In this document: positions 26,629 to 27,154 of the stretch, piece after piece
Numbering within the stretch: position 1 is the first letter of the stretch
Layout: the number at the start of each line of letters is the position of its first letter
DNA from: Paraspadella gotoi
Taxonomy: Eukaryota; Animalia; Chaetognatha
Direction of reading: 5' to 3'
NCBI GenBank assembly: GCA_051294375.1
Contig: CM119270.1
Location: forward strand, 21,775,917 to 21,809,309
DNA length: 33,393 nt
Notes under the pieces: model-generated
What the model saw: the letters and a program-made list of their open reading frames with translations, nothing else
The model's database searches: none
What the model was told of the DNA's origin: nothing
Translations under genes and position numbers: made by a program

Positions 26629-27154
26629 TGTAGAGCACTCAGAGGATTAATTCCTAATAAAATAAATTCGTCTTGTCCGGGATTCGAACCCGGGCCAGAA
26701 TCTCGGGATGTCAAGAACCCCAGCTCTGGACCAACAAGACAGCTACAAAAGTGCAACTTCAATTCTCCTATTTAAAAACTTTAACAAATGAAGAAATCTT
26801 TTGTTTTCAAGTTGTCAACTCAGTCTCAAAGAAGATGTCTCACTGGTTTTAAATCTTTTGTTATTGATTGTTAACTTTATTGATTATTGACTGAATGATT
26901 TCAGTTGGGTTTTAAATCTCGTTTGAACCTGTTGATTTTAATATATTGATCCCTATCAATAATCGCGTTTTTACTATAAAGTCAACAATGTAGTTAATAC
27001 ATTAATAAAAGACTCTTTTTAAAACTAATCAACAACTTGAATACCGGCCACGCCTTCCCTGTGACGTCCTAAGCAACGTCTTAGTACCGTGGCACTCCAG
27101 TGGTTACGCCCTCCGCCGTCACGCTGTGGAGAAACTCCGATAGCTAACCACACA
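26629..27154 (+). repeat. 5' LTR (about 526 bp; right end inferred)
   Basis: Starts TGTAG and matches the sequence after the PPT. Contains TATAAA (26975-26980) and AATAAA (27004-27009) and ends ...CACACA immediately before the PBS-like TGGTGA. The right end cannot be confirmed because the 3' LTR is in a gap; an alternative end is GCTACA at 26747. Confidence 0.7.
26669..26740 (-). ncRNA. tRNA-like (tRNA-derived) Pol III cassette inside the LTR, not a canonical decoding tRNA
   Basis: Minus strand reads GTCTTGT-TGGTCCAGAGCTGGGGTTCTTGACATCCCGAGATTCTGGC-CCGGG TTCGAAT CCCGG-ACAAGAC-G (72 nt). It has a 7/7 acceptor stem, a 5/5 T stem with TTCGAAT loop (B box), an A-box-like TGGTCCAG, and TTTT 6 nt downstream. 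The anticodon-position loop is 6 nt and lacks U33. Confidence 0.75.

Follow-up and report, generated by a model that had tools for sequence, protein, structure and literature searches.

Introduction

The A and B boxes of tRNA genes are read by TFIIIC, whereas the acceptor stem and the T arm of the RNA are read by RNase P and RNase Z. Non-decoding tRNA mimics that offer an acceptor stem and a T arm to RNase P and/or RNase Z are known from mascRNA and menRNA and from the TMERs of the gammaherpesviruses. The mascRNA, which is released by cleavage of a Pol II transcript, is shorter than the tRNA-like sequence described in this article (hereafter, the cassette), and the TMERs bear microRNA hairpins behind the mimic, whereas the cassette has none. 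At the level of DNA, tDNAs act as chromatin barriers.

Among mobile elements, the closest described system is Helenus (TRIMp3), in which the LTRs likewise contain a tRNA-derived sequence with A and B boxes that neither decodes nor serves as the primer (PMC10886601). The original prediction for the locus studied here had named tRNA-like plant TRIMs as an analog, and these have indeed been published as Helenus, animals included, with the animal families linked to Gypsy and some of them provided with a tRNA-Trp primer-binding site (PMC10886601). However, Helenus elements are 311-1263 bp long and encode nothing, and in the examples consulted their tRNA part lies on the sense strand, where it is the proposed driver of the element RNA (PMC10886601), whereas the element described here is about 6.3 kb long with open gag and pol frames and carries an outward-facing unit that ends in a T run. 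According to the parts of his article used here, Kojima analyzed only TRIMs under 1 kb, expected their autonomous partners to use Pol II and set aside other Repbase LTRs with tRNA-like parts (PMC10886601).

A second likeness is to the LTRs of foamy viruses, where self-contained units of A box, B box and terminator are found in an autonomous reverse-transcribing element; these units encode microRNA hairpins, as shown by experiment, whereas the cassette is antisense, keeps the acceptor stem and the T arm and is known from sequence (PMC3993851). Boundary functions have been described for the tRNA-derived B2 SINEs, which mark methylation boundaries, but in tDNA and B2 boundaries the unit is a host gene or the mobile element itself, whereas the cassette is a module of an LTR with a putative boundary effect (PMC8136502). 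A meeting report from 2026 mentions, in the part consulted, only Helenus and Ajax (PMC12859917). The literature searched, to which subscription journals and Repbase entries were external, contained no account of a tRNA-like unit placed antisense in the LTR of an autonomous Gypsy element, and the word "tRNA" did not appear in the chaetognath papers searched. Similar cases may nevertheless be on file, given Kojima's remark on unanalyzed Repbase LTRs.

Results

The Host Element

The cassette lies in a retroelement near the end of the window, by which we mean the whole stretch of 33,393 nt that was analyzed (Table 1). The element is about 6.3 kb long, with an internal region of 5.25 kb and open gag and pol frames. 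The gag motif reads CAKH...C...C, which corresponds to CX2HX9CX3C; pol overlaps gag in the -1 frame and has the domain order PR-RT-RH-IN with a GPY motif, without env or chromodomain, and with a protease motif that reads DGG in place of DT/SG. The traits given for the CsRn1 clade are the CX2HX9CX3C motif, the PR-RT-RH-IN order, GPY, a -1 overlap of gag and pol and a tRNA-Trp-like primer-binding site (PMC2582038). Judged by its gag motif, domain order and GPY motif, the element is an intact autonomous Gypsy of the CsRn1 type, in agreement with the original prediction. The CsRn1 elements PwRn1 and AgCR resemble it in the gag motif, domain order, GPY and -1 overlap, and perhaps in the primer-binding site, but unlike in the present element, no tRNA-like unit in their LTRs is mentioned in the part of the source used here (PMC2582038).

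Table 1. Features of the element and of the cassette in its 5' LTR (positions in the window).
Feature	Position	Strand	Remarks
5' LTR, 526 bp, TG...CA	26629..27154	+	Start matches 32411-32450; primer-binding site next
TTTT, predicted Pol III terminator	26659..26662	-	30 bp from outer edge of LTR
tRNA-like cassette, 72 nt	26669..26740	-	Acceptor stem, long irregular middle hairpin, T arm, discriminator G
B box GGTTCGAATCC, perfect	26680..26690	-	Inside T arm, at cassette position 51
A-box-like TGGTCCAG	26726..26733	-	Cassette positions 8-15; from sequence
TATA-like tract, putative TBP site	26769..26776	.	TAAATA on minus strand, TATTTAAA on plus strand; inferred from sequence
Primer-binding site, tRNA-Trp-like, two mismatches	27155..27167	+	From sequence comparison
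gag frame, 400 aa stop to stop	27259..28461	+	First ATG 27349; CX2HX9CX3C motif
pol frame, 1272 aa, open	28410..32228	+	Protease, RT, RNase H, integrase with GPY motif
Polypurine tract	32402..32410	+	From sequence
3' LTR, first 40 bp	32411..32450	+	Followed by a gap of 100 N that begins exactly at the expected cassette start

The primer-binding site agrees at 11 of 13 positions with the form common in relatives, and likewise with a bee tRNA-Trp. Its departure from the usual form at two positions may mean that the host tRNA-Trp differs or that another primer is used. The 5' LTR is AT-rich (27-28% GC) save for the cassette and the last 114 bp (58% GC), and apart from the start of the 3' LTR no match to it was found elsewhere in the window.

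Several further observations concern the element and its surroundings. The stretch 28431-28475 contains GGGAAAC, a slippery heptamer in phase with gag, and then a G/C-rich potential hairpin, which fits -1 frameshifting into pol. The end of pol (31640-32228) is a long tail past the integrase, rich in proline and arginine, and similar tails are present in the close relatives L002-L006. Upstream of the element, a minus-strand host exon was recognized at 26000-26402 with an AG acceptor at 26401-26402. A contig from run X9, which we guess to represent RNA, spans this exon and departs at the acceptor, which suggests that the element sits antisense within an intron of a host gene; the upstream exon of the host gene was not found within the window. 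Elsewhere in the window, there is a 126-nt inverted repeat, possibly of a DNA transposon or MITE, with arms at 15199-15324 and 16393-16518 that are 87% complementary and 1,068 nt apart, an 18-nt tandem repeat at 18240-18803, the minus-strand open frame of which gives a MIASI(T/V)-like peptide repeat, and a (TCGG)n tract at 33062-33165 that produces a spurious mir-341 match in Rfam (33 bits, gathering 90).

Anatomy of the Cassette

As had been noticed from the sequence, a tRNA-sized 72-mer is present on the minus strand (26740-26669), starting 40 bp inside the LTR, which itself begins at 26629. The claims that its acceptor stem and T arm are perfect were borne out: the acceptor GTCTTGT/ACAAGAC forms 7/7 Watson-Crick pairs with pair probabilities of 0.97-1.0 and is followed by the discriminator G, and the T arm CCGGG-TTCGAAT-CCCGG (26693-26677) forms 5/5 stem pairs. 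The TTTT run was correctly placed just downstream and inside the LTR, 7-10 nt past the discriminator. The A box, said to occupy the canonical site, does so in part: TGGTCCAG is found where it should be, whereas the GG is displaced to positions 20-21, vs. 18-19 in the consensus. The TAAATA on the minus strand is situated 29-34 nt upstream of the cassette, in AT-rich surroundings.

The middle of the cassette had been described as something other than a decoding arm that can fold as one long hairpin. Its outer part, CCAGAG/TTCTGG, has pair probabilities of 0.93-0.96, whereas the proposed inner part, TCTTG/CGAGA, reached only 0.04; the preferred cap is GGG/CCC, or else a 5-bp arm with a 7-nt loop in which UUG follows C33 (probability 0.16). 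The canonical D stem has a pair probability of 0.0, and position 33 is C instead of U. The cassette is thus unlikely to decode, considering the missing D stem, the stable outer hairpin and the low probability of the C33 anticodon arm.

ARAGORN called the cassette as tRNA-Gln(ttg), the only tRNA call in the whole window, and the Rfam tRNA model scored 29.7 bits (gathering 29, E 0.0048). Together with the A and B boxes and the T run, this score upholds the view that the LTR contains an antisense, tRNA-derived unit with signals of the Pol III type. The minus strand folds at -32.8 kcal/mol (z -3.07; 1/200 shuffles equally good), and the plus strand has a z of -1.79. The geometry of acceptor plus T arm arose in 4/20,000 dinucleotide shuffles of the LTR and in 0/20,000 shuffles of the local 96-nt region. 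A match to the mascRNA-menRNA family (RF01684) at the same place is not significant (20.2 bits, E 2.2, below the gathering threshold of 42.5). No ribozyme families were found in 25500-33393 (Rfam, E up to 10), and a scan for bacterial promoters and terminators, which is of a type not applicable here, gave nothing.

Probable Presence of the Cassette in Both LTRs

Because the window breaks off at the point where the 3' copy of the cassette is expected to begin, its presence at both ends was assessed from contigs of sequencing runs. The element was found in 9 of the 11 runs listed, in three studies, none of the nine being recorded as RNA, and the contigs of 6 of the 11 were compared with the window. 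In 4/4 runs a single contig crosses the cassette without any letter change, although one run may be the source of the window's assembly, in which case it would offer no independent confirmation. In runs X1 and X9, from two studies and the only two of four to give any match in a second comparison, the 30 letters preceding 26641 equal 32393-32422 of the window, that is, the polypurine tract and the start of the 3' LTR, and the contigs run on from there through the cassette to 26770 with no differences. Among the matches listed, there is no branch or loose end after 26668 of the kind that a cassette-free 3' LTR should give. It is thus very likely, on the evidence of these contigs, that the 3' LTR carries the cassette too, as the original prediction had supposed. 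This evidence is strong but not absolute, since identical LTRs collapse in such assemblies. The contigs of X10 and X11, from other organisms, showed no match on the cassette, which is no proof of absence.

Some discrepancies between the window and the contigs were also seen. The first 12 bases of the 5' LTR differ from 4/4 runs, and in the two runs with letters shown they equal the start of the window's 3' LTR. The stretch 26550-26640 of the flank has many small indels relative to X1 and X5 contigs, and at 27113 the window departs by 3 nt from 4/4 runs. The indels, the odd first 12 bp and the difference at 27113 are probably assembly errors or reflect another copy or allele. No contig joining the 5' flank to the LTR was found among the matches listed for the four runs, a gap that proves nothing.

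Related Repeats and the Parent tRNA

At 80% likeness, the body of the cassette (26707-26743) was matched by one contig per run, the LTR's own, in 4/4 runs, which indicates that it is not a common dispersed repeat. Dispersed SINE-like copies were absent at this level from the four runs, the contigs of which drop rare variants, and the cassette has no SINE-type tail. We therefore rejected the identification as a tRNA-derived SINE, with the reservation that rare copies are possible. The suspicion that the cassette could be a one-off or dispersed insertion of a SINE or tRNA was not borne out either, because no such copies were seen and part of it is common to two other repeats in the same animal.

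The first of these is represented by a 332-nt contig from X1 with a near-identical LTR start, which matches 26660-26695 with five differences and then continues into a different middle; a loose-end match to the same stretch is also present in X5. The other is a 3,296-nt contig from X9 that matches 26676-26706 as well as the gag start at 27349-27399. Compared by eye, its 3' acceptor strand differs at 4/7 positions, yet the contig still has the discriminator G and the TTTT trailer. In both repeats the T arm is found at an unchanged offset in the LTR, and the acceptor or the middle is altered; the comparison covered 30-letter fragments of those copies that match the T arm, which do not reach the 5' acceptor strand. 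The gag start is also matched by at least four to seven more contigs in each run, for which the matches listed include no T arm. In addition, other contigs match the 3' end of the LTR and the primer-binding region (27046-27170) and the gag start (27339-27400), one of them joining 27167 to 27339, which shows that this animal has many related families.

The parent tRNA is uncertain. Of 46 viral tRNA calls whose T arm begins as in the cassette, 27 are Pro, but the alignment scores of the cassette were highest for Asp (60) and Glu (59), followed by Gly and Pro (56), in a set that is biased because it was picked by patterns from the cassette itself. The last 15 nt match the 3' end of an Aplysia tRNA-Pro (PMC10886601, supplement) at 12/15 positions by eye, and the cassette's own 5' strand can pair with both of the changed bases in the acceptor strand (positions 68 and 71). 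The sequence comparison suggests that these changes are compensatory, but only if tRNA-Pro is the parent, and the uncertainty about the parent weakens the argument.

Distant Relatives

From metagenomes, 80 of 443 relatives were kept, with integrase identities of 41-61%. An LTR-like start with at least 130 nt was available in 57 of the 80 loci (48 distinct starts, a few of which are probably false), and within their first 200 nt a T arm was found in 0/57, nor was there one over 600 nt with a stricter pattern. The five closest relatives are short, and only L002 (61%) extends to an LTR, which is without a T arm. The Rfam tRNA model gave no match at E up to 1 in the 15 of 80 loci searched. The pattern of LTR start plus T arm was found in none of the prokaryote genomes and none of the viral contigs searched, and relatives in viral contigs amounted to one distant locus by one search and to none with an alignment. 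At the protein level, there are at least 120 homologs, many of them with about 70% identity in the reverse transcriptase. The expectation that related elements would share the cassette was thus upheld in part for the two repeats of the same animal and failed in the distant relatives. The lack of a T arm in the 57 LTR starts indicates that CsRn1-type elements do not need the cassette and that it is a local trait of a lineage rather than of CsRn1. In L002, a minus-strand tRNA-derived SINE-like head with an A box and a degenerate B box was observed at 2010-2120, just past the apparent end of the LTR.

Discussion

From its sequence and its recovery in contigs, we conclude that the cassette is a real, heritable module of the LTR, for which the evidence of conservation is modest and the function is putative. 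Assignment of the element to Helenus was considered and rejected; the two have in common a tRNA-like LTR sequence with A and B boxes, but differ in autonomy and in the placement of the unit, which is antisense here. LTR promoters of the tRNA type are known from short non-coding elements; the unit found here is antisense, terminated and fully paired, and belongs to an autonomous element.

Our preferred reading, which we put forward tentatively, is that the cassette is an outward-facing Pol III gene for a processed, non-decoding tRNA mimic that guards the edge of U3. Binding of TFIIIC to the boxes would position TFIIIB some 30 nt upstream, still within the LTR. The Pol III transcript would be about 85 nt long, with its end at TTTT, and would be shortened to 72 nt by RNase P and RNase Z. 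If each LTR has such an occupied gene at its U3 edge, the gene could keep the local chromatin open, and the one in the 3' LTR could obstruct antisense read-through into the coding region. Each new copy would inherit the cassette, since reverse transcription copies U3 to both ends, and the antisense orientation together with the terminator implies that it is not the promoter of the genomic RNA. Consistent with such a gene are the perfect B box and the complete stems around a remodeled middle, which are far above chance, the better folding of the minus strand, the position of the cassette on the side of the polypurine tract in X1 and X9, the recurrence of part of it at this offset in two other repeats, and the pairing of both acceptor changes relative to the Aplysia tRNA-Pro. 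Precedents exist in retroviral Pol III units (PMC3993851) and in B2 SINE boundaries (PMC8136502). On the other hand, this reading is built on anatomy, and neither the strand nor the ends of a transcript can be read from contigs. The A box departs from the canonical form, and in DNA with 27% GC both T runs and TATA-like tracts arise easily. A Pol III barrier needs only the boxes and not the stems, the 3,296-nt contig from X9 was not recovered in a second comparison on a short stretch, and the further gag-start contigs lack a listed T-arm match. A broader proposal, which we regard as doubtful, is that in a lineage of autonomous animal Gypsy elements a tRNA gene has become a permanent, domesticated part of the LTR, an outward-facing Pol III gene with the foldability of the mimic RNA under selection, and that this module protects the LTR from methylation and antisense read-through. 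It would then be a cis-acting anti-silencing device taken from the tRNA machinery of the host.

Several other explanations can be thought of. The cassette may be a passenger without a role, a tRNA gene, SINE head or Helenus-type LTR piece that landed backwards in an ancestral U3 and was copied to both LTRs; we consider this somewhat unlikely, yet a serious possibility. Kojima proposed that such units arose from a SINE inserted into an LTR, and he noted tRNA-like pieces in "not a few" of the LTRs in Repbase (PMC10886601), and the absence of the cassette from 57/57 distant LTR starts agrees with an accidental insertion. Such a history does not readily explain why both stems have kept all their pairs when the D and anticodon arms have been rebuilt into a new hairpin, nor why the T arm, discriminator and T run persist where the flanking LTR of the other repeats no longer aligns, and the body has no dispersed copies in the four runs. 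Quite unlikely, in our view, is a gate at the RNA level that operates without Pol III, in which antisense Pol II transcripts entering the 3' LTR fold into the mimic and are cut by RNase P or RNase Z before the coding region, limiting double-stranded RNA and silencing by small RNAs. It would account for the orientation, for the location of the cassette, which on the minus strand is the final LTR feature ahead of pol, and for the exact retention of acceptor and T arm, and the element copy does appear antisense in a host intron; the mascRNA-menRNA match at the same place points the same way but is not significant. However, the spacing of the boxes, the T run and the upstream AT tract fit a self-contained Pol III unit, and cutting a host pre-mRNA within its intron could harm the host gene.

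Similarly improbable, and if anything slightly more so, is a small RNA that acts in trans, with the RNA made by Pol III, or part of its hairpin, serving as a source of microRNAs or tRFs or as a decoy for a tRNA-binding restriction factor. The stable middle hairpin and the microRNAs of foamy-virus LTRs (PMC3993851) speak in its favor, but there is no hairpin between the mimic and the T run, which are separated by 6 nt only, the middle differs in the second repeat, and the LTR lacks matches in the window other than the start of the 3' LTR. Finally, it is very improbable that the cassette is a decoding tRNA-Gln or the element's own primer for reverse transcription. The ARAGORN call and an Rfam score just above gathering would be expected of a tRNA-Gln, but the D stem and C33 are against decoding, and the body resembles Pro, Asp or Glu tRNAs and not Gln. 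As to priming, the primer-binding site is tRNA-Trp-like and not complementary to the 3' end of the cassette. Both versions are thereby largely refuted.

A practical consequence of our findings is that cassettes of this kind yield false tRNA-Gln calls in annotation. With regard to biology, an antisense unit that is terminated cannot drive the RNA of the element, and if the cassette is under selection it must do something else. The leading idea is self-protection from silencing. In one arrow worm, DNA methylation is reported to target LTR elements most strongly (PMC12460157), which would sharpen a test of this idea in an arrow worm host.
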